Part shown: piece by piece, positions 2 to 21,512 of the stretch | Position numbering within the stretch: position 1 is the first letter of the stretch | Layout of the letters: the number at the start of each line of letters is the position of its first letter | Origin: Anaerolineaceae bacterium | GTDB taxonomy: Bacteria; Chloroflexota; Anaerolineae; Anaerolineales; Anaerolineaceae | NCBI GenBank assembly: GCA_034933225.1 | Contig: JAYFNV010000025.1 | Span: 10,457 to 74,456 of the forward strand | Reading direction: 5' to 3' | DNA length: 64,000 nt | The notes under the pieces: model-generated | The model's input: the letters and a program-made list of their open reading frames with translations, nothing else | Database searches by the model: none | Told to the model about the DNA's origin: nothing | Program-made: the position numbers and the translations under genes

Positions 2-886
2 ATTGGCGGCAGTGCCGCCGGTGCGGTTGCCACGGCCATCGTCAAAGATGTCTACAGCGGTAAACAGCGCCAATCCGTGCTGGCCATTGTGCAGAGCATG
101 GTCACCATCTCCCCGGCAGTGGCGCCAGTGTTGGGCGCCTTTCTGCTCAAGGTCATGTCGTGGCGCGGCGTGTTCTGGACGCTGATGGGCATAGGTGTTC
201 TGGCCCTGATCGGCGCTTTGCTGTTTGAAGAGACCCTCCTGGAGCGCAACCCCGGGCGTTTGCATCAGAGCTTTGCCCGCATGGGTGTGGTGCTGCAAAA
301 TAAACGCTTCACCCTGTTGTTGCTACTGTTTTCGCTCACCAGTGTGGCCAGCCTGGCATTCATCACCTCTTCCACGTATATCTACCAGAATAACTTTCAT
401 CTCAGCAGCCAGGTGTACAGCTTTTATTTCTCCGTCAACGCCCTTGGGATGACGGTAGCCCCAATTCTTTACCTGTGGTTGGCCAAACGAGTGGATACTC
501 AGAAGATCATTTATATTTGTTTTGGCACAGCGGCTCTCAGTGGGCTGATGGTCTGCCTGTTTGGCAACACGCAACCTTGGATCTTTGCCCTGTGCATTCT
601 GCCCAGCACGCTGGCCAATAGCTGCATCCGCCCACCCTCTGTGAACCTGATGCTTGACCAACAAAAAGGCGATTCAGGCTCCGTCTCCTCGCTCATCGGC
701 TGCAGCGGTCTGCTCATGGGCAGCCTGGGCATGCAACTGATGTCTCTGCCCTGGCAAAACGCCATTCTGGCCATCGGCATCCTCACTATGGGGATTGCCG
801 CTTTCAGCTTCATTGTCTGGCCGCTCCTGCACAACTATATCGCCAAACACGCTGCTGATGCCAGCCCTGAGACGACCAGCATTTAG
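2..886 (+). CDS. MFS efflux transporter, Bcr/CflA-like (5' end lies upstream of the window)
   Basis: The frame is open from nt 2 (IGGSAAGAVATAIVKDVYSGKQRQSVLAIVQSMV...), so track ORF 77..886 is only the part after an internal Met. Several hydrophobic helices; pattern recalled from Bcr/CflA drug:H+ antiporters. TAG stop at 884-886 is followed by a terminator. Confidence 0.8.
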   Translation: MGGSAAGAVATAIVKDVYSGKQRQSVLAIVQSMVTISPAVAPVLGAFLLKVMSWRGVFWTLMGIGVLALIGALLFEETLLERNPGRLHQSFARMGVVLQNKRFTLLLLLFSLTSVASLAFITSSTYIYQNNFHLSSQVYSFYFSVNALGMTVAPILYLWLAKRVDTQKIIYICFGTAALSGLMVCLFGNTQPWIFALCILPSTLANSCIRPPSVNLMLDQQKGDSGSVSSLIGCSGLLMGSLGMQLMSLPWQNAILAIGILTMGIAAFSFIVWPLLHNYIAKHAADASPETTSI

Positions 887-950: not shown

Positions 951-2615
951 TCATTCTATGGGATGGATCTCATAAATGCGCCAATGGGCACCTGTTTCTG
1001 TACCAGAATCCCAGACCAGGGTGGCCCAATCAGCGCCGTGTTCAAACAGAGTGGGATAAGTGACGTTAAAGATGCTCAATTGCTGCTCAGGGTCAAGCAC
1101 CAGCATGTATTTGACTGTGCCGATGGGGTTGGCCAGCACCTTGAAGAAGCCATCATCATTGGTGATGTAAAGCCGCCTGGGATATTGGGCTGCCATGATG
1201 ACAGAGAAACTGGTGGAAGAATCTACCAAGACCAGCCCGTTCTCAGAGAGTTTATCCACCTCTTTGGCTACCACGGGGGCATCGGTAAGATTCACCCAGT
1301 ACCAGTCTTTGGCGCGCAGAGCCGGCTCACTGATCGGGTCATAGACCAGCGCGGCGAGGCGCTGCTCATCTGCACCCACCGTTTTGGCGCGCATGGCCTG
1401 CAATGAGAGGGGGGTTCCCGCTAAAAACAGCCCGATCAGGGCAACATAAAAGACCAGATGCCATTTTGGCTTGAGATGTGAATAAACGATCCCGGCCATG
1501 ACCAGGGCAAAGGGAGCAGCATAGAACCAGTAACGCATCCAGTTGGCCAGGGTGCCCAAATATACCTGCAAAATGGAGAACGCCGTGACGCTGAGCATGA
1601 CGATGAAGAGGCCAAAGCCTTTGCGATCTTTGTGCCAGAAAATGGAGATCAGCGCCAGCAGTCCCATTACCGGGTAGGCAGGGTTTTGCTCAAATGAGCG
1701 GGTGAGCCCCACCCGGATGGATTCGATGATGTTGCCCCAGGCCAGATAAAGCGGATGCCCCAGACCGATGCTGCGGGCAATATCGGAGGCATTGCCCAGG
1801 CTGTAAAAGCTGCGGTAAAAGTAGAGTGGATCGCCCAAAAGGGTCCAGTTAAAGAAGATCCACATCACAATGGCGTAGACAGGCGGAGTAAGCACCGCCA
1901 GCAGCCAGCCTTCTGTGCGTGGACGCCAATCATCGCTGCCCCACATATGAACGATGATGGCTAGCGCGACGCCGGCCAGAATAGGCAGGGTCTCATAACG
2001 CACCAGGAACGCAACCGCCAGGCTCATCCCCACTAAAACCCAGGAGCGCATGGATTCAGGCATCTGGTACAGGCCCAGGAAGACGACAAGCACACAGAAC
2101 AGAAAAACGGGTTCTGCCATGCCGGAGGCAAAGAGGTAAAGCGTGTTGGGGTGGAATTGCAGCAAGACCACCAATATCCAGCGCACAGCCGGGGGGAACT
2201 TAAAGTGGGCCAACAGACGGTTGGTGAGCACGATCACGCCAGCACCAAACAGGGAAGACAAAATATTTCCGGCAAAGAACACGCTGCCCAGTGCTCTGGT
2301 GAGCGGCAATAAGGGGATCTGCAAGATGCTGGGCAAGGGTGGCCAGACAAAGCCAACTGCTGCCAGATGCGGCTCACGCGAATAGAGAACGTAGTAGGCG
2401 TTGGCCGTGCGTGAGAGCGCATCTCCATTGCCAATATGCAGCACGTAGTTCAAAAAGTAGGCGACCACCAGGTTAATGAGCAGCGAGAGCAGGAAAAGGA
2501 TCAGGCTCTCAAAGCGCTTGAGATGCACCTTTGCGTCCTGGTTGGTCAGCGCTTTGGTGGGGTGCAGTACTGCAGCCCGGGAAGAGGGGAAGAAGGATCT
2601 CGGCTTTCTGATCAT
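951..2615 (-). CDS. polytopic membrane protein, putative GT-C fold (ArnT/PMT_2-like) glycosyltransferase
   Basis: 554-aa ORF whose ATG overlaps the stop of the upstream synthase gene (ATGA at 2612-2615). Many hydrophobic helices over the first ~400 aa, then a soluble C-terminal domain. An acidic loop motif (GNGDALSR) follows the first helix. The family call rests on topology and recollection only. Confidence 0.55.
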   Translation of the reverse strand: MIRKPRSFFPSSRAAVLHPTKALTNQDAKVHLKRFESLILFLLSLLINLVVAYFLNYVLHIGNGDALSRTANAYYVLYSREPHLAAVGFVWPPLPSILQIPLLPLTRALGSVFFAGNILSSLFGAGVIVLTNRLLAHFKFPPAVRWILVVLLQFHPNTLYLFASGMAEPVFLFCVLVVFLGLYQMPESMRSWVLVGMSLAVAFLVRYETLPILAGVALAIIVHMWGSDDWRPRTEGWLLAVLTPPVYAIVMWIFFNWTLLGDPLYFYRSFYSLGNASDIARSIGLGHPLYLAWGNIIESIRVGLTRSFEQNPAYPVMGLLALISIFWHKDRKGFGLFIVMLSVTAFSILQVYLGTLANWMRYWFYAAPFALVMAGIVYSHLKPKWHLVFYVALIGLFLAGTPLSLQAMRAKTVGADEQRLAALVYDPISEPALRAKDWYWVNLTDAPVVAKEVDKLSENGLVLVDSSTSFSVIMAAQYPRRLYITNDDGFFKVLANPIGTVKYMLVLDPEQQLSIFNVTYPTLFEHGADWATLVWDSGTETGAHWRIYEIHPIE

Positions 2616-5600
2616 TTGCTCCCTCCTTTACCGGGTTCAGTGCCTTCTGATGTCCCGAATTCATTTGCGCCAGGGTCAACATCATCCGCTGAGCGCTGAT
2701 ACAGGCCGTGGCGGGTCTTCTCCCAAAAGTGCGGCTTGACGATCAACTGTACAAAGCCCTTCCAACTGGCGATACTGCTCATAGCCCAGTAGATGGGGCT
2801 GAGCAGGGCGGTGGAGACCATGCCATAATAGCCACGGCGCATGGCGCCGGCCACATTGACGTATGTGAAGACAAAGGTGCCCACATACAAACACAGCGCG
2901 CCCATGTAGAAAATAACTCCCGGGAATAGCTGCTGGATGAATGCCGGTTTGGCCAGGAACCAGATGGCCGTCATAGCCCAGTAGACCGGGTTCATCAGCG
3001 CGGTGAAGAAAGTGCCGCCCACAATGAACTGGAAGCTCATAAAGTTCCAGAAGCCGATCTCGCGGATAAGGTGCAGGGGGCGGCGCATGTGCACCAGCCA
3101 GGTCTGCATGTAGCCCTTCAACCAGCGCGAACGCTGGCGGATCCAGTTGCCGAATTGGCTGTTGGCTTCCTCATAGGTGGTGGAATCCACAATGCGAGTA
3201 CGGTAACCGCGTTTGAAGAGGCGGATGCCCAGATCGGCATCTTCGGTGACGTTGTATGGATCCCAGGCGCCGGCTTCGACAAGGGCCAGGGTCCTGAAGT
3301 GGTTGGAAGTACCTCCCAACGGTATTGGCGCGTGCTCGGCGTCCAGACCGGGCAGAAGCAGGTCGAACCACATGGAGTATTCCACGGTAAACCAGCGGGT
3401 GAGGATGTTCTGGTTGCGATTGTAATAATTGAGCTTGGCCTGAATACAGGCTACCTTTTCATCCGTCTTGTTGAATGCAATGACCACGCGTTTGAGCTGA
3501 TCGCGGTCGGGCAGATCTTCTGCATCGTAGATCACCACATAATCGCCGCGCGCGTGGATAAGCCCGTAGTTGCAAGCCTTGGGTTTGGTCTTGGGCAGTT
3601 CGTTTGGCACGATCACTTTTTGAATGAAGCGCGGCGGGTTCACCTGGTCGAACCTGGCAATGGTCTCTTCATCTTCCTCTTCCATCAGCACCAGAATATC
3701 CAGGCGGGCGGAGGGGTAATCGATGGAGGCCAAAGATTTGAGGATTTCCGGCAGCACCTCGGCCTCACGGTGCACCGGTACCAGAATGGTATAGACCGGC
3801 AAGTCGGCATCTTTTAACTGGGCCACCTCTTCTGCTGTGACCGGTACTTCCAGGTTCGTAGAGATGGCCTTAAAAATGAGGCGAAACTTGTAGATGGAAA
3901 AGACCAGATAAAAAGCGGTGACGAGCGCATTGATGATGACCAGATAAGAGTGCCAGTCAAGCACCAGCCAGACCACAGTCAGCACTGCCATCACGATGAG
4001 GCTGATGACCTGGCCGCGCACCAGCACCCGGTAAGCTGAATCTTGCGGGGTGCGCTCCAGCAGGGAGGAGATGCTTTCATTTAAATAATGACTGCGGTAA
4101 ACCTCTTCCAACACTTTCTCCAGGTCAGATTCGCTGATGAGCACCAGCTTGATGGATTTATTGAGCAGCTTTTCGGCCTGCTGAATGCCCTCCTGGTTGA
4201 GGGGGTCCACCGTGGCCAGGATCACCTGTTTGGCATCCTGGGCAAGCGGCAGCACACCCTGGGTGCGCTCAAAGGTGGGGTCAAGCAAGCGGACGGCGGC
4301 CTTATCTACCAGCGCTCTGGAAAGATCAAAGAAGGGCAGGTCTGCCTGATGGGCCAGGAACTGATACAGGGCCGTCTCTGTGATGTAGCGTTTGAAGACC
4401 AACGCCTTGCCCAGACGGATGTTCACCCTGCGGGCATAATCGAGGGCATCATTCAACTGGCTGCGTGTGATCATACCGGCCACCAACAGGGTGGTACCCA
4501 GGTTGGGTCGGCCCAGGGTGCGTTGAATGGCATCTTCCAGCGAAGCATGCGTGGTGAGCACCGGAATTACACTGGTACGCAAGATCACCTGCAGGTTGCG
4601 ACGGGCATTCTCAAAGAGCGGGTCAGAGAACGCCACCACGGTCTGATCTCCCACCTGGCGGATGGGCAGTGCTTTAAATTGGTGGGCGCTTTCCAGCGTC
4701 AACAGACGAGCCACGGCCGGATCTACCGGGTCCAGGGTACGGGTGCGCGTACGTTCAGCGCCCAGTGCATCAATGACCTGGCCTCTTTCTTCTTTAAGGG
4801 CCAGCTCTTCAAATTTAACATTCAACAGTTTGGCCATCTTCTGGCCCACTAATGTAGCCGAAAGGCCGGTGACGGCAACGACGGCCTCATCCAGCGAAAC
4901 CCCCGTCTCTTTAACGCGTTTCTGGCTAGCATACGCCTGTTTGCGTGTGCAAAGACCGGCAGCCACCAACTGATCCAGCAATTTGCCTGTTTGCTCGGCC
5001 TGGTCAACTTCAAGCGAGGCCGAGAATGTGCGCTCGATCATCTGCACAATGATGGAGTAAGGAGCCAGCACCGGCCAGATTGATTTTTTGCTCAGGGTCT
5101 CAAATTGTTTGAATCCCTCGGCCAAAAACGGGTCTGCGCTTGCCACCCATAAATTATGCTCATCTTCTAAAAGTGGAAAGAGCTTGTATTTTTGAATGGC
5201 CTCTTCAGGGATTTTTTGCAGCAGTTTTTCATCTACAAGCACGTGGTCCAGGCTGAGGGTGGGCATCCCCAACCAAAAACCGGTCGCCTCCACCAGGTCT
5301 TCTTCTGAGAGAAAACCTTTCTCCATCAGCTCGCCCACCCAGTTGGCAGATTGCTTGTTGGTCTCATCAAACTGAGCCCGGGTGATGTAGCCAAGCTGAA
5401 TGAGAACCTCCAGAAACAGCAGAGAGGTTGGATCGCTGCTGACATCTGCGGGCGGATAGATCACATCCAGCCAACGCTGCAATTCCTGTTCGTCCATCAG
5501 GCGGGGTTCCACCTGCAAATGGGTCAGCGCTGAGACAAGGTCCAGCAAGCGCAGGTCGAGTGTATCCACGCCCAGCAGCAGGGTGCCATCTTCTTCTGCG

Positions 5601-6541
5601 ATGGGCAGCAGGTGAAACTTTTGCGCCATCCAGCCAGGGAGATGATGACTGACCGGTGCGACAAATTTAGCAAAATAAGGTGGAATATCTCTGGCCAGGA
5701 GCGGCATCACCCCAATGGATCTGGAATAGACCTTCAGCCAGGCATCCGGGCTGACCAGGTTGCGCTCGAAGAGGATCTGCCGGGCTGGCAGCGCCACCTG
5801 GCGTTCCACCTGCAAAACCAGATCGCCCTGCTCGCGCGTGATCAACCGTTCGGCAACCAGCAGGTCGATCATCTCAGCGCTTGGGCGGGTGACGAGCGAA
5901 TGGCCGCGCAGGACCAGTCGCTGATAGGCCAGATTGATGAGATCTTCCTCGGCAATGATCCATTGAAATGAGTAGTGGGCATCCAGGGTAAGCAGGTCCA
6001 GCTCTTTTTGCCACCTGGGGTCATCGGTCAGCAAGAACAGGGTGGAGCCTGCCCAACCCAGCGGAATTACGTGGTCACGGGGTAACCCGGCGGGCAGCAG
6101 ATAATCCAACCCCCTGGGCGGGAAGGGATTTGCTCCGGCCAAATGGGGCAAATTGGCCAGCAATCCGTTCAATTCCAATAGGTCTCTAGCGCTCTTTTCG
6201 GTGGGGAAGAGCTTTCCGGCTACCCCCTCAGAAAGCGCAATCCCAGGCGGACCGTAAAGGCGGTCACGCAGATACTGATAATCTACCCACGAGCAGGCCA
6301 TAACCTTGATCGGCCTTCTTAGCAGAGTTTGAATTTCATTCTGCTCCTCTTCGGATAAATTGAACGGTGAAGCCAGGGTCAAACCATTGTTTTCAATGCT
6401 CAAAGGCACGGTTGAAAACTTACGGGCCACAGATTCAGGGAAAACATGCAAGACCGCTCTGGAAGGCGATATTGAATTCAAACGCAAAAATGGGGTGGAA
6501 TAATTCCAGGCTGTCATGAAACCATCTCTATTAATAAACAA
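2612..6541 (-). CDS. processive family-2 glycosyltransferase (polysaccharide synthase) with about six N-terminal T2SSE_N/MshEN-like modules
   Basis: 1309-aa ORF with a TTG start at 6541 (alternative ATG 8 codons downstream). aa ~20-817 hold repeated GspE-N-terminal-type modules. aa 843-890 form two TM helices. aa ~915-1150 form the GT2 core with PVYTILVP, YDAED, GGTSNHFR, VTEDADLG (TED) and QRSRW (QxxRW). Then come 4-5 TM helices and a ~40-aa tail. Confidence 0.8.
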   Translation of the reverse strand: MFINRDGFMTAWNYSTPFLRLNSISPSRAVLHVFPESVARKFSTVPLSIENNGLTLASPFNLSEEEQNEIQTLLRRPIKVMACSWVDYQYLRDRLYGPPGIALSEGVAGKLFPTEKSARDLLELNGLLANLPHLAGANPFPPRGLDYLLPAGLPRDHVIPLGWAGSTLFLLTDDPRWQKELDLLTLDAHYSFQWIIAEEDLINLAYQRLVLRGHSLVTRPSAEMIDLLVAERLITREQGDLVLQVERQVALPARQILFERNLVSPDAWLKVYSRSIGVMPLLARDIPPYFAKFVAPVSHHLPGWMAQKFHLLPIAEEDGTLLLGVDTLDLRLLDLVSALTHLQVEPRLMDEQELQRWLDVIYPPADVSSDPTSLLFLEVLIQLGYITRAQFDETNKQSANWVGELMEKGFLSEEDLVEATGFWLGMPTLSLDHVLVDEKLLQKIPEEAIQKYKLFPLLEDEHNLWVASADPFLAEGFKQFETLSKKSIWPVLAPYSIIVQMIERTFSASLEVDQAEQTGKLLDQLVAAGLCTRKQAYASQKRVKETGVSLDEAVVAVTGLSATLVGQKMAKLLNVKFEELALKEERGQVIDALGAERTRTRTLDPVDPAVARLLTLESAHQFKALPIRQVGDQTVVAFSDPLFENARRNLQVILRTSVIPVLTTHASLEDAIQRTLGRPNLGTTLLVAGMITRSQLNDALDYARRVNIRLGKALVFKRYITETALYQFLAHQADLPFFDLSRALVDKAAVRLLDPTFERTQGVLPLAQDAKQVILATVDPLNQEGIQQAEKLLNKSIKLVLISESDLEKVLEEVYRSHYLNESISSLLERTPQDSAYRVLVRGQVISLIVMAVLTVVWLVLDWHSYLVIINALVTAFYLVFSIYKFRLIFKAISTNLEVPVTAEEVAQLKDADLPVYTILVPVHREAEVLPEILKSLASIDYPSARLDILVLMEEEDEETIARFDQVNPPRFIQKVIVPNELPKTKPKACNYGLIHARGDYVVIYDAEDLPDRDQLKRVVIAFNKTDEKVACIQAKLNYYNRNQNILTRWFTVEYSMWFDLLLPGLDAEHAPIPLGGTSNHFRTLALVEAGAWDPYNVTEDADLGIRLFKRGYRTRIVDSTTYEEANSQFGNWIRQRSRWLKGYMQTWLVHMRRPLHLIREIGFWNFMSFQFIVGGTFFTALMNPVYWAMTAIWFLAKPAFIQQLFPGVIFYMGALCLYVGTFVFTYVNVAGAMRRGYYGMVSTALLSPIYWAMSSIASWKGFVQLIVKPHFWEKTRHGLYQRSADDVDPGANEFGTSEGTEPGKGGSK

Positions 6542-6547
6542 GGACCA

Positions 6548-6748
6548 TTAGTCTTCTTCCGAACGGTCTCGGATAGAAAAGAAGATCACCAGACCCGATA
6601 TGATGATCAGAAATATGGCGAAATAACCATTAAAGATTCCCAGGATCAGTAAAGCCCACGCAGATAGAAAAACGGCAACTTCCACAATGATTATGATCAG
6701 TTGCAGCCATTTTTTTTGCGGCCTCGGCGATTCCCCTTTATCACTCAA
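6548..6748 (-). CDS. 66-aa double-TM membrane protein (operon-embedded)
   Basis: TTG start 2 nt after the upstream stop; its own stop lies 6 nt before the synthase start. Two long hydrophobic helices (LQLIIIIVEVAVFLSAWALLILGIF / FAIFLIIISGLVIFFSI). No family recognised. Confidence 0.45.
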   Translation of the reverse strand: MSDKGESPRPQKKWLQLIIIIVEVAVFLSAWALLILGIFNGYFAIFLIIISGLVIFFSIRDRSEED

Positions 6749-6750
6749 AT

Positions 6751-7920
6751 TTACACATCCTTCTGAGAAAGAACTTTCCAGCTCATTGAAGCATAGTCTT
6801 TAAGGTCATCCCTAAAATCAACTTTGGTGAGATCCGTATTTCCCTTCAAAATAAATACCAGGCGACCATTGGCATATTCGATCAGCTTCAGGTCTGTCAC
6901 TGCCGGATTGGAAGAGATTTTGGTTTGGATCCTGGGCAGATCGGCTAGATTCTGAAATCCCAGCAGCGTGAAAAGAAATTCATCTGCGTCCAGGCCTTCC
7001 AATTGGGTGCGACCGCGGGCGGCCAACGCTTCTGCATTGCTGATGTCCGCCATCTCAATTTGCGGGCTGGGTTCTTTACGGATACTGGCAGCCGAAACAA
7101 CCGGGGTTTCAGATGCCAGGGCCAACTGCAAAGCCGCCTCACAATTAGCGATCAACTCCTCAGGGGTTACGCCGTCTTCCGGGAAGGTTGCCACTGCGAT
7201 GCGCAGATCCAACTGGGTCACCTTGGCCGCGTTTGTCAGCAAGCGGCGCGCAAACGCCACCGCGCCGGCTGCATCGGTCTCAGGCAAGATCACCCCAAAG
7301 TGGTTGCCCACAAAAGAGATGTCTACGTCATTGCGGGAGGTCTTGAGCAGCAAACGGGCAATGGCGGTATCGATCTCTTTGCGGTCATTGGTCTCAAGGT
7401 ACTCATAGGTGGCCTTTGAGGTCTCCAACATCAAGAAAGCAAAGGTTTTCTGGTAGCGCCGGCAGCGAGCCAGCTCAGTATCCAGGCGGGTGCGGGCGTG
7501 TTTCCACAGCAGCAGGCCGGTCTCAGAATCGTATTGGATCAGATCGCTCAACAATTGCAGGTCCTTGCGCATGCGAACCACATTGCGGTTGATCGCACGC
7601 ATCAACATTGAGCTCAGGCCGCCTGTCGCCCCCAAAATCAGCACAACCGTCAAAGGAGCGAACACTGATTCGATGCCAGTGTAATGAAATATGCTGAAAT
7701 AGGTGACCGCGTAAATGATGGAAGCCAACAAGGTAGAAAGAATGGCCGCAAACGGGAAGATGCGCGCAATGGAGACGATCTCGATCATCACCAACAGGGC
7801 CAACGAAAGCAAGAAGAGTTTGTGGTCCACCAATAGGATCGAACCTGTGGCAATGACGGACCAGACGGCCAAAATGGCAATATTAACGTCTTGAAAAGTA
7901 GATTGAGTAGAGTTGTTCAT
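6751..7920 (-). CDS. membrane protein with degenerate GGDEF domain (VGNHF in place of GGDEF), PelD-like receptor candidate
   Basis: Four N-terminal TM helices. A GGDEF-fold region spans aa ~128-270 (DSETGLL..., RRYQKTFAFLMLE, VGNHFGVILPETD, AVATFPEDG) and lacks the catalytic GG(D/E)EF and the upstream metal/substrate residues. An unassigned ~90-aa C-terminal domain follows. ATG lies 2 nt after the BcsB-like stop. Confidence 0.7.
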   Translation of the reverse strand: MNNSTQSTFQDVNIAILAVWSVIATGSILLVDHKLFLLSLALLVMIEIVSIARIFPFAAILSTLLASIIYAVTYFSIFHYTGIESVFAPLTVVLILGATGGLSSMLMRAINRNVVRMRKDLQLLSDLIQYDSETGLLLWKHARTRLDTELARCRRYQKTFAFLMLETSKATYEYLETNDRKEIDTAIARLLLKTSRNDVDISFVGNHFGVILPETDAAGAVAFARRLLTNAAKVTQLDLRIAVATFPEDGVTPEELIANCEAALQLALASETPVVSAASIRKEPSPQIEMADISNAEALAARGRTQLEGLDADEFLFTLLGFQNLADLPRIQTKISSNPAVTDLKLIEYANGRLVFILKGNTDLTKVDFRDDLKDYASMSWKVLSQKDV

Positions 7921-7922
7921 AG

Positions 7923-10130
7923 CTATTTCCGATTCCTTGTAAACCGGATGACCAGCAGGGCCGCCAGCGAGATGACGAAGATACCCCCCGCCAACCAGAG
8001 CACCCAGTCCGGATAAGAACCCAGTGTACCCGGGTTCGGTGCCGTTGTTGTATCTGCTTCCACGGGCTGGTCAGATACCAGCGAGGTCTTGCTGGCAATG
8101 GTCAGAAAGGCCGTCTCCTCCGCGTTGGATGCCACCACCAGATTACCGCTGAACTTTTTGTACTGATCAGGCGTGTTGACGATACTGGCCAGCCAGCTCA
8201 AACTGGTAGAAGAGGTACCGGTCAAAACCAGGCGATACGCCCCATCTTCTGTGAACAGAGATTGGATGTAGCCCAGCGAACCGGAGGCCGGTACCACCTG
8301 GGTGACCCCTGCAATGGCCCTGGGGGTCACCTTATCTGCTTCAAATGGCTGGGGCAGCAGGTCGTTCAACTGCATCACCGCATCATTCTGCGCGGGTAAC
8401 CCCACAATGATCTGGTACGAGCGCGCTGTTGATACAGCGGCCTGATCTTTGACCGAGACCACGGCCGGCAGCAGGCTGTCACCGCGAGCGGTGTGCCCAA
8501 TACGGTTGGACACCTGAAGCACCAAATTGGCCACAGGCCAATCGATCTTATCTGGCACCACAAAGGCCAGGTTGGCAAGCGTGGCCGAGCCCAGGTACAG
8601 ATTGGGGTATCCGGTGAGACTGGCCGTTTTTTGGCCGATATTGGCCGGGAAGGTGAAAGTAGAATTTGGACTGATGGTCAGCCACGAGTCTGTGTAATAT
8701 TTTTCTGTGCAGTACAAAGTGCTGGCAACAGCAGCGTTGTTCACCTGCAAATTACTGGTGATGGCAATAGAATTTTCTCCCACTTTGAAGAGCCGCAGCG
8801 GGATCTTTACTTCCACGCTGGCATCCTGGGCGTTCTGTGCATTCAAGGCAATACTGGTGACGGGAACATCGTTTACCAGGATATCCAGCGAAGAGCGATC
8901 CGGATTCAACACGCTTGAATGAGAGAAGATGAGGTTGAAAACAGCCTCGCCCTGAGAATCAAAGACCAGTTGCAGGGGCAGGGTAAGGTACGTAGATTGC
9001 TGACTGCTGCCCGTGGCCACAATATCTGCAAAGCCCAGGCTCTTGAGCGAGTAGACCAGGCTGGGGGTGGTGGTGGCCACCTCCTCTACAGCAGGGGTCT
9101 GCAAGATGATGCCCAGTTGCCCGGACAGGCGGTCAAACACTGAGGTGGTGGCGAACGCTCGGCTGGCTTTTTGCAGGCCGCTTGCGTCTACACCGGTAAC
9201 GCTAAGCAGGATGCCCGTTTCATCATAAGGGGAGGTCTGCAGCCAGAGCACACCAGAATCAGCGCCGATGGCCTTGCCAGCTTTGTCTTTGAGCTGCAAA
9301 GAAGACCCAGAGCCGCTGCTGGCCGGCAGCAAAGTAGTGCTGGCGGTGGCCAAATTGGCGGCCTGACCAATGACCAGCAGATTGCCCTCAGGCTTTTGGC
9401 TGGCCAGTTTATCTAATGAAAGCGTCTTGATCACAGGAGTGCGCCAATCAGCCCACTGACCCAACTTGGCGCTGATGGTTGCAGCAGCTTCCAACTCGGC
9501 GGCGCTGGGGTTGGCGGGCAACACCAGGGTGATGACGCTCTCCTGCAGCGGACTGGGATCAATGAAGGTGGTCGGCAGGCTGCGCAGGTCAAGCGTTTGT
9601 GCCTGGCCGCTGTATTGAACCTCAAAGGAGGTTGTGTTGTGCACCACCGCCCAGATGGCCGGGTTATCAAAGTCTTCGCAAAAGTCGTCGCGAATGCCCA
9701 TGTAGAATTGCACGTTCAACTTGTTGTATCCCGAAATGACAGACTCCGCCGGGATCTCAATTTCCAGCTTACCGCCCTCTACATTTTGCGAGCCCAACAG
9801 CCCACTGCCCACGCGGATATCGTTCCAATCTACCGACATGCTGGAGTGATTGTTGAGTGAGGCCGAGTGGCTGAAGTCAATGGTGATCTTAAGTGGCGCT
9901 TCGATCTTCCAGGTGGCCGGAAAGGTAACGCCGTACTGGTGGCTCACCAGCACCCCCTGATACTCATCATCGCTGGTTACGCCCAGGTCTTTGAGGGTAA
10001 AGGTGGCCTGGGTCCATGTTTGAGAATCCTGTGCTTTCACTCCCTGCGGAGCTGCCATCAATAAAACCAGGAGAATGAATAAGGCACTACGTACCAGGGC
10101 TAAAAAATGGGAGAGGGATGTTTTTTTCAT
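7923..10130 (-). CDS. BcsB-like secreted, C-terminally anchored synthase partner (internally duplicated)
   Basis: Signal peptide (LFILLVLLMAAPQGVKA|QD). Two homologous halves, each with the pattern L(K)xLG ... FSHS(A/S)xLN ... SS(M/L) ... ND(I/V), as in the BcsB family. Single C-terminal TM anchor (WVLWLAGGIFVISLAALLVI) plus a basic tail. Size and topology match BcsB. Confidence 0.65.
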   Translation of the reverse strand: MKKTSLSHFLALVRSALFILLVLLMAAPQGVKAQDSQTWTQATFTLKDLGVTSDDEYQGVLVSHQYGVTFPATWKIEAPLKITIDFSHSASLNNHSSMSVDWNDIRVGSGLLGSQNVEGGKLEIEIPAESVISGYNKLNVQFYMGIRDDFCEDFDNPAIWAVVHNTTSFEVQYSGQAQTLDLRSLPTTFIDPSPLQESVITLVLPANPSAAELEAAATISAKLGQWADWRTPVIKTLSLDKLASQKPEGNLLVIGQAANLATASTTLLPASSGSGSSLQLKDKAGKAIGADSGVLWLQTSPYDETGILLSVTGVDASGLQKASRAFATTSVFDRLSGQLGIILQTPAVEEVATTTPSLVYSLKSLGFADIVATGSSQQSTYLTLPLQLVFDSQGEAVFNLIFSHSSVLNPDRSSLDILVNDVPVTSIALNAQNAQDASVEVKIPLRLFKVGENSIAITSNLQVNNAAVASTLYCTEKYYTDSWLTISPNSTFTFPANIGQKTASLTGYPNLYLGSATLANLAFVVPDKIDWPVANLVLQVSNRIGHTARGDSLLPAVVSVKDQAAVSTARSYQIIVGLPAQNDAVMQLNDLLPQPFEADKVTPRAIAGVTQVVPASGSLGYIQSLFTEDGAYRLVLTGTSSTSLSWLASIVNTPDQYKKFSGNLVVASNAEETAFLTIASKTSLVSDQPVEADTTTAPNPGTLGSYPDWVLWLAGGIFVISLAALLVIRFTRNRK

Positions 10131-10316
10131 AATTCCAGATCGTCCTTTTGGGTCACTTCCCCTTGAGAGGAGAACTTGCTTTGGTGGTTTACTGTTAATA
10201 TATTAAATTATAACCAATATATAATCACATATATGAAGTTAGTTACTATTATACGGATTTTTCATGAGATTTTTATCAATTCCGTATGAATAATAATGAT
10301 AATTCCGACCTGATTG

Positions 10317-10341
10317 ATTAGCAATGAGAATAATTGCTAAT
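10317..10341. promoter_or_regulatory. perfect 9-bp inverted repeat (candidate operator)
   Basis: ATTAGCAAT-gagaata-ATTGCTAAT in the AT-rich divergent region between the EPS operon and the 10501(+) genes. Confidence 0.3.
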
Positions 10342-10367
10342 TTTATCGAACAAATTCGCAAACTACC

Positions 10368-10396
10368 TTCAAATCAGTGGTTTCGCCCGGTATAAT
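10368..10396 (+). promoter_or_regulatory. sigma70-like promoter candidate
   Basis: TTCAAA, 17 nt, TATAAT; about 100 nt upstream of the 10501 ATG. Confidence 0.35.
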
Positions 10397-10500
10397 GGGG
10401 CTTGGTTTGATCATCAAATAGACGCATTGTCCTGCGCGTCCAGCCAAGGACCGGCCAAAGCACCCACCTTACTGGTAGAAATAGATAAAGCAGAAGAATT

Positions 10501-13090: not shown

Positions 13091-13747
13091 ATGAGCATCT
13101 CCATCATGCTGGTTGAAGACCACAAGATCGTACGCGAAGGCACCCGGCAACTGCTTGAGCAAAACACAGATTTTTCTGTGATCGGCGAAGCCGCAGATGG
13201 GCTGGAAGCCGTCAATCTGGCCGGGACGCTAAGCCCGGACATCATCATCATGGACGTGCGCTTGCCCAACATGAATGGGATCGACGCCACCCGGCTCATC
13301 ACCCGGCGCCACCCCCAGACCAAAGTGATCATCCTTTCTGCTTACGATGATGACAGCTATATCTTCCCCTTGTTTGAAGCTGGCGCCAGCGGTTACCTGC
13401 TAAAAAATTCCAGCGGGGCAGAACTTGCTGCAGCCATTCGATCTGTGCAGCAGGGAGAAACGGCTCTTTCGCCACACATCGGCTCCAAGATCATCCACCG
13501 GCTGGGAAACAAGAGCGAGAACGCCAAAACGCTTTGCATGCTCACCCAACGGGAGCTGGATGTGCTCAAACTGGCCGCGCTAGGCCAGCCCAATAAACTC
13601 ATCGCCGCCCGGCTGGAGATCAGCGTGCAGACGGTGCAGGTGCATTTGCGCAACATCTTCAGCAAACTGGAAGTAGGCAACCGCTCTGAGGCGGTGGCGC
13701 ACGCCCTCCAATCTGGCTGGATCTCGCTGGAGATCCATGACAACTGA
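13091..13747 (+). CDS. response regulator, NarL/FixJ (LuxR-type HTH) family
   Basis: REC domain (MLVEDHKIVREG..., IIIMDVRLPNMNG, ILSAYDD) plus a C-terminal LuxR HTH (LTQRELDVLKLAALGQPNKLIAARLEISVQTVQVHLRNIFSKL). Confidence 0.9.
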   Translation: MSISIMLVEDHKIVREGTRQLLEQNTDFSVIGEAADGLEAVNLAGTLSPDIIIMDVRLPNMNGIDATRLITRRHPQTKVIILSAYDDDSYIFPLFEAGASGYLLKNSSGAELAAAIRSVQQGETALSPHIGSKIIHRLGNKSENAKTLCMLTQRELDVLKLAALGQPNKLIAARLEISVQTVQVHLRNIFSKLEVGNRSEAVAHALQSGWISLEIHDN

Positions 13748-15173
13748 GGTGCAGTTTCAGGAAGAAAATGATGCCGCTCGCGCGAAGGCAGACCTTTCCA
13801 GCGCGCCCATCCGCTCCCAATTGCTCTGGTCTTCGTTTTTTCCCCTGGCCCTTTTTGGCCTGCTCACCACCCTCGTCATTGCCATCAGCATTCAAAAGAT
13901 CACCCTGGACCTTGCGGAGCAACGCAACAGCGCCAGGGTGCAATTGCTCGCTGCCCAAATGGAGCAATCCAAGTTGACGGGTGAACCCGTCAACACAGCA
14001 TCATTAAATTCAATGCTCAATGGAGCAAACGCAGGCAAGGAAAGTAGCCTGTTTCTGATCGACGCAGATGGGCATGTACTTGCTGCTTCGGGGCCCCTCA
14101 ATTCTCAGGGTAGCCCGGCTGCTTTCGATTTTTCAACGCTCTCCGCAGCTTCAGGTGAATTGGTGCAATGGCCGGCCACTCAAGACCAGGTGTTGATCAC
14201 CCGCCAGCCCTTGGCAGATGCCACCGGTTATTTGGTACTGGTCGAACCCTGGCAAGAGATCGTCGCCGCGGCAGCCGGTTACCAGATGCTGCTGGTCGTC
14301 CTCACCTTGCTGGGGGTGCTCCTCTCGCTCTTTATGCTTTCATTGGCCATCACGCGCATCCTGCTGCCCATCCGCCTGCTGACGGAGCGGGCCGCCCTGG
14401 CAGTGCCGGGCAGCGTTTTTGAGCCCATTCCAGAAAACGGCCCCGGGGAGATCCGCAGCCTCATCAACGCCTTCAACCAGATGGTCATCCGTCTGGCCAA
14501 ACAACAGATCACCCTGCGCCAATATGCCCACAAATCCCTTTTGAGCCAGGAAGAAGAAAGACAACGCCTTTCTCGTGAGCTGCATGACGGCCCCTTACAA
14601 GACCTGGTGGGGCTGCATCAACGCATTGAGCTGTACCAGAACGAGCTGGCCGAAGATCCTCATCAGGCGCAGCAGCGCCTGCAGGAGATCGACCAGATCA
14701 TCGATCATTCCATTGAGGACGTCCGTACCATCAGCGTTGCCCTGCGCCCGCCCATTTTGGATGACCTGGGCCTGCCCGCCGCCATTGATTCGCTGTGCAA
14801 AGGCATGGCCAATTCAATGACCGGTCTTGACTGCGCTTTCTCGCTGGTCGGAAAGCAGCAAAGGCTCTCCTCAGAAATGGAACTGGCCATTTACCGGGTC
14901 GTTCAGGAAGCGCTCTCCAACATTCGGAAACACGTGCCCAATGCGAGCCAAGTTACGGTGGAACTGGTCTTTGCCAAAACAGAGGTCAAAGCCACCATCC
15001 GTAACGACGGCAGCTCCTTTGCAGATCAGGACGTGCAGGGCTATGTGCGCTCTGGTCACATTGGTCTGGCAGGGATGTACGAGCGCGCCCGTTTGTTTGG
15101 CGGTTCCCTGAAGATCAGAGCCACTGAGAACGAGGGAACCATCATCACCCTGCGGCTGCCGTATGAAATCTAG
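13737..15173 (+). CDS. sensor histidine kinase, HisKA_3 (NarX/DesK-like) type
   Basis: Overlaps the regulator by 11 nt. Two TM segments flank a sensor region. HAMP-like linker, H-box LSRELHDGPLQDL, and HATPase motifs (EALSNIRKH, GLAGMYERARLFGG). Confidence 0.85.
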   Translation: MTTEVQFQEENDAARAKADLSSAPIRSQLLWSSFFPLALFGLLTTLVIAISIQKITLDLAEQRNSARVQLLAAQMEQSKLTGEPVNTASLNSMLNGANAGKESSLFLIDADGHVLAASGPLNSQGSPAAFDFSTLSAASGELVQWPATQDQVLITRQPLADATGYLVLVEPWQEIVAAAAGYQMLLVVLTLLGVLLSLFMLSLAITRILLPIRLLTERAALAVPGSVFEPIPENGPGEIRSLINAFNQMVIRLAKQQITLRQYAHKSLLSQEEERQRLSRELHDGPLQDLVGLHQRIELYQNELAEDPHQAQQRLQEIDQIIDHSIEDVRTISVALRPPILDDLGLPAAIDSLCKGMANSMTGLDCAFSLVGKQQRLSSEMELAIYRVVQEALSNIRKHVPNASQVTVELVFAKTEVKATIRNDGSSFADQDVQGYVRSGHIGLAGMYERARLFGGSLKIRATENEGTIITLRLPYEI

Positions 15174-19628: not shown

Positions 19629-21512
19629 ATGAAGAAATCTCTACGAGCATCGCAAAAAATACTGTTTACCTTTTTGCTCCTCTTGTTTTTGGTTAGTTGT
19701 GGATCTCCCGCCTCAACCGAAGCAAATATAAATAAAACACCCACCTCAACTTTAGATAAAGACCATACAAAGATCCTGGCTACCCAAACACTTACTCAAC
19801 AAACAAACCTTTTTTACATTGAATATCCCAATCTCTGGACGAAGATTCCCGAGAACAAAATGACGTTATCTCTACAAAATATCGTCCGAGATTACGGATA
19901 TGCTCCAGATGGCAGTTATTGGGCTGTGGGAAATTTTGGCGTTTTGCACAAAGAGATCAACGGGAAAACCACCTGGTACTCAATGCTAAATGGCCTGCCA
20001 GTCAATCTCTTCGATGTTTTAGCAATTTCTCCTGAAGGGGAAATATGGGTGGGTGGTATTAACAACACAGTGTTGCGTTTTAACGGAAACGAATGGATAG
20101 ATGAGGGTTCGCACTTTCCAAATCCGACCGATCCAAGGACTGATTGGTTATGTTACTCAAAAACAATTAGAGGAATCGATTTTGACCAACAAGGCAACCC
20201 GTGGGTAATGAATTCTGGGATTGAATTGTACACAAAAGTGTACGATCAATGGATCAATTATGCATTTCCAAAAGAAATTTTACCGATAGCTGGTGGAGGA
20301 GCTTGCCCACTCGGGTTACGAGTTAATTCTTATAAGGACATCACCATCAAACGAGGTGGATGTTGCATGCAGGGCCCTCTAGCATACCATTATGATGGAA
20401 GTGCATGGTATCAAGATAATAACTATCAGGCAGTGGATGATTTGCTTGCCGAACGCCATAAGGGTGAAGCAGACCCCAACGAAAAGTATTTGTCATTACC
20501 AGTTGAAGATTTCCCTTTACCACAAGAACAGACTTTGCCTCAAGAGATATATGACGATACACAGTTCGGAATGGACGAACAGGGAGGAATTTGGTTTACA
20601 GATGGTTATTACATGTTCACCAATCAAAACGGCAAATTTGAAAATCTGAGCGATGTAAAGGGTTTCACGGCCTTCCTCCCCGATTTATCCAATAGTCAAA
20701 TTATCAACCTTAGCGGGAATGCAATTTATTATTCCTATGGGCAGCATTTTAGGATGTTGGATGACATCCTTGACGATCAAGGATTCAATGTGTATGGAAA
20801 CTATTACAAAAGTATCGATGCAAATAAGCAGTTGTGGTTATTTGCGCCACAATACGGGTTAATTAAAGTAAAGGCGGGGATTGCGGAGGTTTTACAAACG
20901 AGTCCTCCAGCCGAATTGACCGATTCTCTCACAGGTGGCACGTTGATGCTGCACGATGGCCGAATTGCCGTGGGCGCAGTAGGAGCGCTTTGGCTTTTCG
21001 ATGCCCAGGAGAATACCTGGCAAAAATTACAGCTTCAAGACCAAACCCAATTATTGACGTATCTACAGCAGGATACGGCTGGGACTATCTACGCAGCAAC
21101 AGACACTGGGGTGATAATTATCACAGGAAGTACATTCAGTTTTTATGAGTTTGAATCTTCTACTACGCTTCCAAAAATAATTACTGGTCCTTACGGAGAT
21201 AGCGATTGTTCGTTTCATAAGTATTACTTTATTGCAGATCATTGTCACGCCTTTCCTTATGCCTATTATTCTGATTTTCAGTATTCAGCTAAGTATCTGA
21301 AGGTCACTCCTGATGGGACAGTGTTTTACATTAATAACCGGATCCTTTCCACACTATCAGAAGGCAAATGGAAAAGTTACTTTTTGGATAACCTTGATAT
21401 TATTGATGCAACCGTGGATAATGATGGGGCTGTTTGGGCTTTTACAGGCACAAATGGTCTTATCCGTTTTACACCAGATATTTTTGATTATTACCAGGGT
21501 TACGAAGAATAA
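19629..21512 (+). CDS. lipoprotein with beta-propeller-type repeats (two-component-regulator-propeller-like)
   Basis: SD AAAGGGG. Lipobox LLFLVSC|GS. Repeated W/Y-rich blades (e.g. EIWVGGINNTVLRFNGNEW, GIWFTDGYYMF, AVWAFTGTNGLIRF). Noticeably AT-richer than its neighbours. Confidence 0.7.
   Translation: MKKSLRASQKILFTFLLLLFLVSCGSPASTEANINKTPTSTLDKDHTKILATQTLTQQTNLFYIEYPNLWTKIPENKMTLSLQNIVRDYGYAPDGSYWAVGNFGVLHKEINGKTTWYSMLNGLPVNLFDVLAISPEGEIWVGGINNTVLRFNGNEWIDEGSHFPNPTDPRTDWLCYSKTIRGIDFDQQGNPWVMNSGIELYTKVYDQWINYAFPKEILPIAGGGACPLGLRVNSYKDITIKRGGCCMQGPLAYHYDGSAWYQDNNYQAVDDLLAERHKGEADPNEKYLSLPVEDFPLPQEQTLPQEIYDDTQFGMDEQGGIWFTDGYYMFTNQNGKFENLSDVKGFTAFLPDLSNSQIINLSGNAIYYSYGQHFRMLDDILDDQGFNVYGNYYKSIDANKQLWLFAPQYGLIKVKAGIAEVLQTSPPAELTDSLTGGTLMLHDGRIAVGAVGALWLFDAQENTWQKLQLQDQTQLLTYLQQDTAGTIYAATDTGVIIITGSTFSFYEFESSTTLPKIITGPYGDSDCSFHKYYFIADHCHAFPYAYYSDFQYSAKYLKVTPDGTVFYINNRILSTLSEGKWKSYFLDNLDIIDATVDNDGAVWAFTGTNGLIRFTPDIFDYYQGYEE

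Follow-up and report, generated by a model that had tools for sequence, protein, structure and literature searches.

The 64,000-nt stretch of DNA analysed here (hereafter the window) was derived from an uncultured Anaerolineaceae bacterium (assembly GCA_034933225.1, contig JAYFNV010000025.1, positions 10,457 to 74,456 of the forward strand) and contains a cluster of five minus-strand genes at positions 951-10130. These genes encode a BcsB-like protein (gene 1, 7923-10130; 735 aa), a membrane-anchored degenerate GGDEF protein (gene 2, 6751-7920; 389 aa), a small protein with two hydrophobic helices (gene 3, 6548-6748; 66 aa, TTG start), a family 2 glycosyltransferase (GT2) synthase preceded by an array of MshEN-like modules (gene 4, 2612-6541; 1309 aa if read from TTG 6541), and a polytopic glycosyltransferase of the GT-C fold (gene 5, 951-2615; 554 aa). 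We consider it fairly likely that the cluster represents a cyclic di-GMP (c-di-GMP)-activated, synthase-dependent polysaccharide system, in which the GT-C enzyme decorates the polymer on the outer side of the membrane. A preliminary description made from the sequence alone had proposed a c-di-GMP-controlled exopolysaccharide synthase operon, and this remains the best reading, judging from the predicted c-di-GMP motif in one MshEN module and the BcsA-like fold of the modelled synthase. Every part of the operon is of a known kind; the noteworthy features are a near-universal GT-C partner of the synthase, a largely degenerate MshEN array, and the presence of two putative receptor types in one operon.

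The pairing of the MshEN-GT2 synthase with a GT-C enzyme was the most constant feature among related loci. A scan of GTDB species representatives yielded at least 583 relatives, and 80 loci were kept for neighbourhood analysis, in which open reading frames (ORFs) were called and searched with profiles of the five window proteins; an exhaustive HMMER search gave 2,573 clusters at E<1e-30, approximately 30 of which are full-length multi-module forms. A GT-C gene is located directly downstream of the synthase gene in 72 of the 80 loci, and within 3.5 kb downstream of it in 34/42, 23/23, and 13/13 of the Chloroflexota, Actinomycetota, and Bacillota loci, respectively. Two more loci, labelled as Pseudomonadota metagenome-assembled genomes (MAGs), also contain a downstream GT-C gene. 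The phylum of each locus was taken from its record title. In the same three phyla, the BcsB-like gene was found in 31/42, 0/23, and 1/13 loci, the GGDEF-like partner in 25/42, 0/23, and 1/13, and a homologue of the 66-aa protein in 23/42, 0/23, and 0/13, respectively; for the Chloroflexota these counts are minima, since the cluster is cut off by the contig end in many cases. These counts indicate that the conserved core comprises the MshEN-GT2 synthase and the GT-C enzyme, the remaining genes being lineage-specific additions, and that it is essentially the Chloroflexota that have added the BcsB/GGDEF pair and the small protein. The preliminary description gave too little weight to the GT-C gene, which no other partner of the synthase matches in constancy across the three phyla. 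We found no study of this near-constant pairing in any organism in the literature. The complete five-gene order is also present in locus L001, the synthase of which is 59% identical to that of the window, and in many Chloroflexota genomes, including the cultured Anaerolineae Flexilinea flocculi and Pelolinea submarina, and its recurrence indicates that the arrangement did not arise by chance.

The two core enzymes also occur as natural fusions of the synthase core with GT-C (P0195, P0234, P0176, P0221, P0185, P0228, and P0203), and a further fusion of this kind, P0003 (L002:167-3850), consists of GT2 and PMT_2 and carries PF13231. Two or three tandem GT-C paralogues were identified in L008, L021-L023, L025, L030, L031, L033, L034, L036, and L041. 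In Paenibacillus, genes for a GtrB homologue and a GtrA-family protein (PF04138) are located between the synthase and GT-C genes, and a nucleotidyltransferase gene is located upstream; the GtrB copy tested matched Synechocystis GtrB with E=2.5e-71 and ArnC with 3e-41. A GtrB-like GT2 gene was present in 21 loci in all (Chloroflexota, 5/42; Actinomycetota, 4/23; Bacillota, 12/13), and a GtrA-family gene was present in 10/13 Bacillota loci and in none of the 42 Chloroflexota and 23 Actinomycetota loci.

Six further large proteins (P0163, P0174, P0192, P0150, P0162, and P0181; 1291-1611 aa) contain a synthase-type GT2 domain 45-50% identical to that of the window, followed by a ~500-aa region without a family assignment and a C-terminal GT4 domain, and have no MshEN module; P0163, P0174, and P0192 additionally contain an N-terminal soluble GT2 domain. 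These proteins were not counted as synthase-GT-C fusions, as Pfam assigns GT4 to the last domain and the GT-C profile gave no match to them. L025 and L069 are typical Chloroflexota-type or Patulibacter-type clusters found in MAGs labelled Sphingomonadaceae and Paraperlucidibaca, and these odd labels may reflect binning errors or horizontal transfer.

Judging from its domain composition, the gene 4 product is a member of a large family of synthases with N-terminal MshEN and GT2 domains. The region comprising its catalytic GT2 core and the membrane helices on the C-terminal side (residues 917-1268; 2738-3793, minus strand) was matched by PF13632, PF13641, and PF00535, and contains the motifs YDAED (1005-1009; DAED at 1006-1009), TED (1099-1101), and QRSRW (1136-1140; nt 3122-3136). 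A WEKTxHG motif (1273-1279) is invariant in a 48-sequence alignment. No PilZ domain was detected in the protein with Pfam or NCBIfam, and only ~30 residues remain past this last conserved motif. The Pfam matches and motif positions are therefore in agreement with the 1309-aa, PilZ-less GT2 synthase first described. The GT2 core is 84% identical to that of an orthologue. An AlphaFold model of residues 677-1309 (pLDDT 89, pTM 0.89) found its best PDB folds in BcsA (E=1.5e-14), hyaluronan synthases, and chitin synthases, and is nearer to these than to ArnC or GtrB, with ArnC at rank 48; the sequence itself also matches BcsA structures (E=2e-14). Because the core scores about equally against the CelA (cellulose), PgaC (poly-N-acetylglucosamine), and NfrB models, the product cannot be called cellulose, and both cellulose and poly-N-acetylglucosamine were rejected as assignments.

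The fold of the core bears on the possibility that no new polymer is made, i.e. that the GT2 protein does no more than charge polyprenyl phosphate with a sugar, which the GT-C enzyme uses to glycosylate another envelope polymer. Pairs of GT2 and GT-C enzymes are a hallmark of Gtr/Arn/PMT-type systems (PMC13390465), and some of the GT-C homologues are labelled dolichyl-phosphate-mannose protein mannosyltransferases by JGI/UniRef. However, the QxxRW motif, the flanking membrane helices, and the BcsA/hyaluronan synthase-like fold with its distant ArnC match, the association of the synthase with a BcsB-like protein, and the presence of a separate, bona fide GtrB beside the synthase in Paenibacillus all argue against such a three-component glycosylation system, which we regard as very improbable.

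The N-terminal part of the synthase contains six PF05157 segments, confirming the repeated T2SSE_N/MshEN-like modules of the preliminary description. Five are above the cut-off and one is at 18.4 bits (residues 14-98, 38.8 bits; 155-211, 18.4; 305-365, 36.4; 424-509, 53.6; 604-674, 36.8; and 677-835, 64.6). The distal modules 1-5 (residues 14-676; 4514-6502, minus strand) have degenerate c-di-GMP motifs, and module 1 consists of a T2SSE_N-type subdomain alone, leaving no motif region to score. Module 6, the membrane-proximal MshEN module (residues 677-817; 4091-4513, minus strand), is the predicted c-di-GMP switch and carries tandem 24-residue motifs at 680-703 and 709-732 (nt 4346-4504). The c-di-GMP motif model NF053729 scored 56.9 bits at residues 677-835 (cut-off, 38) and fell below the cut-off in all five distal modules. 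When the published 24-residue motif pair (PMC5013675) was scored on a 22-point scale (11+11), module 6 (680-732) reached 20/22, whereas modules 2-5 reached 12-15/22, which is the level of shuffled sequence (maxima, 14-18; 18 was reached once in 300 shuffles). Scores of 16-17 among homologues were disregarded, as they are attained by shuffled sequence. Identity to the orthologue is 80% in the N-terminal, motif-bearing part of module 6 and 32-49% in the distal modules, and both 'LG' glycines are invariant in a 48-homologue alignment. The modelled module superposes on c-di-GMP-bound MshE (5htl) with a TM-score of 0.85 and a root-mean-square deviation of 2.2 Å. Across the 70-odd homologues scanned, which come from three phyla, the tandem motif almost always precedes QxxRW by 456 residues, the exceptions being Paenibacillus (453-454) and a few others. 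Module 6 is connected to the GT2 core through two hydrophobic segments (residues ~842-894; 3860-4018, minus strand), with hydropathy peaks at 836-854 and 856-874.

The idea that the array forms a battery of c-di-GMP receptors was thus not upheld, only module 6 passing NF053729, although a second or third high-scoring module is retained in some Anaerolineae (L008, at 98, 392, and 700; L022, at 368). The length of the array, which gives proteins of ~1300 aa, is conserved across the Anaerolineae even though the motifs are degenerate, and modules 1-5 have therefore probably been retained for another role, which suggests a docking or scaffolding array.

Variants of the MshEN region were observed elsewhere in the family. 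The Paenibacillus synthases of L056, L068, L070, L072, L074-L076, L078-L080, and L082 contain two consecutive motif pairs, 510 and 453 residues before QxxRW, which look like an (MshEN_N)2 arrangement before one T2SSE_N subdomain. One MshEN-GT2 homologue (P0116) contains a receiver domain (PF00072), which would add a phosphorelay input to the family.

The gene 5 product, previously described as a polytopic protein of the GT-C type, was assigned to that class by its fold. The AlphaFold model (pLDDT 93.2, pTM 0.92) was used for a Foldseek search, in which the top 29 PDB matches were all GT-C enzymes (probability 1.00; TM-score 0.45-0.53), including OST/STT3, ALG9, ArnT, DPY19, PMT, AftB, PglB, and PimE. 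The window protein has no Pfam match, and so none to a curated GT-C family such as PMT_2 or PF13231, and it scored 29.8 bits against the NCBIfam model LA_3751/3752 (cut-off, 200); some homologues with 25-46% identity carry PF13231. Five residues (D65, E168, R206, W252, and R361) are invariant among 47 homologues. D65 lies in a GNGD motif (residues 62-65, within nt 2418-2432) in the first outward loop, between helices 36-58 and 64-78 of the model secondary structure, and a soluble alpha/beta domain is located at the C terminus (~460-554). Our simple hydropathy scan finds too few helices and was given no weight. A GT-C fold whose first outer loop holds an invariant Asp is shared with the GtrA/GtrB/GtrC type of system (also CsbB/YfhO and ArnC/ArnT). 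The structures decorated by known Gtr-type systems are O-antigen, teichoic acids, or lipid A, and our search brought up no description of such a system that is hard-wired, or fused, to a processive synthase gated by c-di-GMP.

These structural matches also bear on whether the GT-C enzyme might instead act as a ligase. In this alternative, the synthase would build the chain on a polyprenyl-(pyro)phosphate primer, in the manner of synthase-dependent O-antigen pathways, and the GT-C enzyme would transfer it en bloc to an envelope acceptor (a wall polymer, lipid, or protein), so that the product would be a surface glycan in covalent attachment and not a free, decorated exopolysaccharide. STT3 and PglB, which are the model's best structural neighbours, move whole lipid-linked glycans, and a C-terminal soluble domain is likewise present in oligosaccharyltransferases and ArnT. 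The strict one-to-one pairing of synthase and GT-C enzyme, together with the fusions, would fit an obligatory final step, and the bacteria in question have a single membrane or an atypical envelope and need some means of keeping hold of their polymers. However, a donor of the polyprenyl-phosphate monosaccharide type is suggested by the GtrB and GtrA genes that separate the synthase gene from the GT-C gene in Paenibacillus, the loci with two or three GT-C paralogues in tandem are more in keeping with several decorations than with a single ligation, and BcsB-like partners typically go with secretion of a free chain. We therefore consider ligation unlikely, though less so than the other alternatives discussed here, and prefer decoration of the polymer by the GT-C enzyme.

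The gene 1 product matches PF03170 (BcsB) in two stretches (E=6.3e-57) and contains an N-terminal, signal-like hydrophobic segment (9-27) and a second one at 710-728 (hydropathy scan), the latter within a C-terminal transmembrane (TM) anchor at approximately residues 706-728 (nt 7947-8015). It therefore conforms to the exported, C-terminally anchored BcsB-like protein first proposed. Its sequence matches to solved BcsB chains are weak (E=2e-6), and because it scores far below the cut-off of all NCBIfam BcsB equivalog models, it is regarded as BcsB-like and not as a BcsB orthologue. The gene 3 product showed no significant family match in Pfam or NCBIfam. Its two hydrophobic helices agree with the double-TM protein originally noted, and it belongs to a conserved small-protein family (59-116 aa) with the core RV...WL.LFLG.F.GY[FL]T, members of which are encoded directly upstream of the synthase in the 23 Chloroflexota loci mentioned above.

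The gene 2 product, a 4-TM protein, consists of N-terminal hydrophobic helices (~12-107), a GGDEF-fold domain (129-267; nt 7120-7536), and a C-terminal extension of ~110 aa (~280-389; window 6754-7083), which is found only in a clade of 390-440-aa proteins and has no family match. The GGDEF fold was verified by PF00990 (27.5 bits; cut-off, 23.8) and by a 27-member family profile that matches solved GGDEF domains in the PDB (E=7e-23), and the signature reads VGNHF (residues 204-208; nt 7297-7311) as had been noted. The domain is degenerate in this signature but not simply 'dead', as it was initially termed, because the family keeps an invariant R...D and a downstream Arg at I-site positions: R196 and D200 of the I-site-like sequence R196-N-D-V-D200 (nt 7321-7335) are invariant, and R226 is nearly invariant, among the 27 homologues. 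The distance from R196 to R226 fits the third I-site arginine of PleD and PelD. Binding of c-di-GMP by this triad is plausible from the sequence but uncertain. In the surveyed loci, a gene 2-type gene always adjoins the BcsB-like gene.

The conservation of this triad leads to the alternative that the MshEN array senses no c-di-GMP and serves as a protein-docking array, any c-di-GMP input passing through the GGDEF-like partner only. T2SSE_N domains are protein-interaction modules in the GspE/PilB secretion ATPases, and module 6 is substituted at two conserved motif positions. Against this, module 6 passes NF053729 and is the best-conserved stretch of the N-terminal region, and the Actinomycetota and most Bacillota members possess an MshEN module without a GGDEF-like partner. 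We accordingly give this alternative very little credence and retain module 6 as the predicted switch.

In one Anaerolineae locus (L006), the gene 2-type gene is present in two tandem copies (L006:9778-10884 and L006:10881-12074). Three Chloroflexota genomes (L017:281-2221, L024:1023-2960, and L038:1013-2938) encode, ~5 kb upstream of the operon, full-length cyclase-type proteins (~645 aa) with an intact GGDEF domain and RxxD, which could supply c-di-GMP locally.

Among known systems, the synthase family is also represented in Xanthomonas. A 2016 catalogue (PMC5013675 supplement, Wang et al. 2016) lists the N-terminal 'MshEN - Glyco_trans_2_3' architecture as uncharacterised, and an N-terminal c-di-GMP motif was reported for X. 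campestris XCC0678 (PMC5013675 supplement). XCC0678 is probably XagB, and several close homologues of the window synthase have been named 'glycosyltransferase XagB' by JGI. A Xanthomonas-like contig (L085) was recovered through the printed XCC0678 fragment, its protein being 92% identical to the XCC0678 N terminus. The 653-aa MshEN-GT2 protein of this contig (L085:9908-11869) matched residues 677-1309 of the window synthase along its full length with E=1.9e-159 (phmmer; query 4-610/target 40-645). It is encoded in a cluster (L085:7568-14164) together with a GT2 protein, an outer-membrane beta-barrel-like protein with WWRF as its last residues, a polytopic membrane protein, and a GH113 hydrolase. 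The Xanthomonas xagABC(D) cluster probably shares the synthase family with the window. The synthase gene is followed by that of the polytopic membrane protein in this case as well, for which hhalign gave a probability of 32% against the GT-C family. The Xanthomonas-like synthase has a single MshEN module instead of six segments, and its cluster, unlike that of the window, does not include the BcsB-like, GGDEF-like, and 66-aa genes. The xag genes are needed for biofilm formation, and their expression is increased in rpfG mutants, in which c-di-GMP degradation is lost (PMC3609779). The Xag polymer is chemically undefined (PMC8042644); the hydrolase in L085, belonging to a beta-mannanase family, hints that it is mannan-like. 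Stalk-forming iron oxidisers are also recorded as having a cluster of BcsB-like and XagB/C/D genes (PMC4643136).

The combination of a BcsB-like protein, a TM-anchored degenerate GGDEF protein, and a PilZ-less GT2 protein is known from Listeria Pss and Bacillus subtilis Yda, where PssE binds c-di-GMP with a Kd of 0.79 uM and YdaK has four TM helices, the signature SDERI, and a required RxxD (PMC4125290, PMC5422440). As compared by description, the layout of PssA-E and YdaJKLMN is shared with the window, and the BcsB-then-GGDEF adjacency matches pssD-pssE. The Pss/Yda synthases differ in that no MshEN domains and no GT-C partner have been described for them, and these systems have a dedicated hydrolase (PssZ, YdaJ), of which there is none in the window operon. 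In Escherichia coli NfrB, the MshEN domain must bind c-di-GMP for polymer to be produced (PMC8669469). NfrB also joins a processive GT2 domain (DxD/TED/QxxRW) to MshEN through two membrane helices, but the order is reversed (GT2 then MshEN), there is one module, the partners are outer-membrane NfrA and periplasmic YbcH, and BcsB, GGDEF-like, and GT-C partners are absent; the NCBIfam NfrB model matched gene 4 with E=1.4e-23 and 83 bits, far below the equivalog cut-off of 1170. The Bcs cellulose synthase resembles the window system in its synthase fold and in a BcsB partner with a C-terminal anchor, but the window operon has no PilZ, BcsZ (GH8), BcsC, or BcsD genes, BcsZ and BcsC being also absent from the immediate neighbours scanned. 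BcsE, a degenerate GGDEF I-site protein, acts as a second receptor beside the synthase-borne one (PMC8892547); it is cytosolic, whereas the window GGDEF partner is membrane-anchored. No GAF, GT4, or Pel family matches were obtained with the five proteins in Pfam and NCBIfam, and no PelD type was found.

This comparison limits the earlier proposal of an unprecedented hybrid in which Bcs, Pel, and MshE logics are wired together and the ~820-aa MshEN array acts as a multivalent c-di-GMP receptor. All of the named domains are present, the operon encodes two putative receptor types, and the additional high-scoring modules of L008 and L022 would fit such a receptor. Nevertheless, one module alone passes the motif model in the window protein and modules 2-5 are at shuffle level, the BcsB/degenerate GGDEF/PilZ-less GT2 layout is that of Pss/Yda, the MshEN-GT2 architecture is catalogued and widespread, and the PelD-type GAF domain and Pel genes were not found. 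The hybrid is therefore improbable as formulated.

On the preferred reading of a c-di-GMP-activated synthase with outside decoration, the system may operate as follows. Binding of c-di-GMP to module 6 (677-817) would relieve inhibition of the catalytic domain, by analogy with NfrB's C-terminal MshEN domain and the PilZ domain of BcsA. The BcsA/hyaluronan synthase-like GT2 protein would then polymerise a backbone from a nucleotide sugar and thread the chain through its own membrane channel, and the C-terminally anchored BcsB-like protein would take it over outside the membrane. The 66-aa two-helix protein may be a small synthase subunit comparable to PgaD/IcaD, and the GGDEF-like protein may be a PssE/YdaK-type partner of the presumed complex, possibly holding a second c-di-GMP via R196/D200/R226 in the way that BcsE does near BcsA. 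At the outer face, the GT-C enzyme would most likely add side-chain sugars from a polyprenyl-phosphate sugar to the emerging polymer, and the product would be a cell-surface or extracellular polysaccharide. A broader proposal, which we advance only tentatively, is that the synthase and GT-C enzyme form an obligatory two-enzyme unit, conserved and at times fused in Chloroflexota, Actinomycetota, and Bacillota, representing a distinct route of polysaccharide assembly, in which a c-di-GMP-gated backbone is finished by branching or attachment by the GT-C enzyme at the outer face with a Gtr-type feed of lipid-linked sugar, and to which the Anaerolineae have added a second sensor and a five-module degenerate MshEN scaffold.

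Several observations weigh against this model. In module 6, motif II has Arg at the second conserved Gly and motif I ends in Ala, not Gln. AlphaFold draws residues 842-894 as a single unbroken helix, the TM hairpin having been inferred from topology. The clade of the window gene 2 has RxxxD, with one residue extra between R and D, compared with the family consensus of RxxD followed by five residues, which aligns with the I-site of real cyclases, and with the RxxD of Pss/Yda. The best structural matches of gene 5 are oligosaccharyltransferases, which move whole glycans and not single sugars. Within the 64-kb window, no GtrB or GtrA gene was detected with GtrB and GtrA queries, and no diguanylate cyclase was detected by phmmer with a true GGDEF domain, a query that missed gene 2 too. 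No glycoside hydrolase accompanies the operon, unlike the situation in Bcs, Pss, and the Xanthomonas-like locus.

The five ORFs were all present as first described, with intergenic gaps of 2, 2, and 6 nt and an ATGA overlap between genes 4 and 5 at 2612-2615. The 6-nt gap before the synthase holds for the TTG start at 6541; however, gene 4 more probably starts at ATG 6517 (M9; 1301 aa), because a 100%-identical NCBI protein (P0001) begins there and the alignment with a 59%-identical orthologue (P0002) also begins there, and the gap between genes 3 and 4 would therefore be 30 nt. The ~370-nt region upstream of gene 1 (10131-10500, minus strand) is a candidate leader/promoter region; as previously indicated, it is AT-rich (GC content 36.5%, the operon having 54.4%), and contains a sigma-70-like site (TTGCTA-17-TATCAT, 10324-10296). 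A c-di-GMP riboswitch was considered for this leader and rejected, as an Rfam scan of the whole window matched no family. Downstream, the terminator-like element was located at 917-936 as a GC-rich hairpin with an 8-bp stem and T runs on both strands, between gene 5 and a convergent major facilitator superfamily transporter gene (MFS_1; 77-886, plus strand). With the tight spacing, the AT-rich leader, and the downstream hairpin, a single operon remains the best interpretation.

Genes for a LuxR-type response regulator and for a histidine kinase with HAMP and HisKA_3 domains are located 3 kb upstream on the opposite strand (13091-15173). Genes for a beta-lactamase-family protein and an ammonium transporter separate this pair from the operon, and nothing ties the pair to it. 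A 627-aa ORF at 19629-21512 matched no Pfam family.

Chloroflexota such as Anaerolinea possess many c-di-GMP enzymes and no PilZ proteins (PMC5013675 supplement), the absence of the latter being recorded for the Anaerolinea and Chloroflexus genomes (Table 5 of that supplement), so that the route from signal to matrix production is a question in these bacteria. The operon offers a concrete candidate route, an MshEN-gated synthase, in bacteria that are abundant in sludge, sediment, and mats. Since the core of synthase and GT-C enzyme is also found in cultivable, genetically tractable Paenibacillus and in Actinomycetota, the prediction is testable. The degenerate MshEN array, with the I-site protein beside it, provides material on the duplication, retirement, and replacement of c-di-GMP receptors. 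If the GT-C step is obligatory, a hybrid of synthase and lipid-linked decoration would join the textbook routes of bacterial polysaccharide assembly, and the long-known Xag polysaccharide of Xanthomonas would gain a family context.

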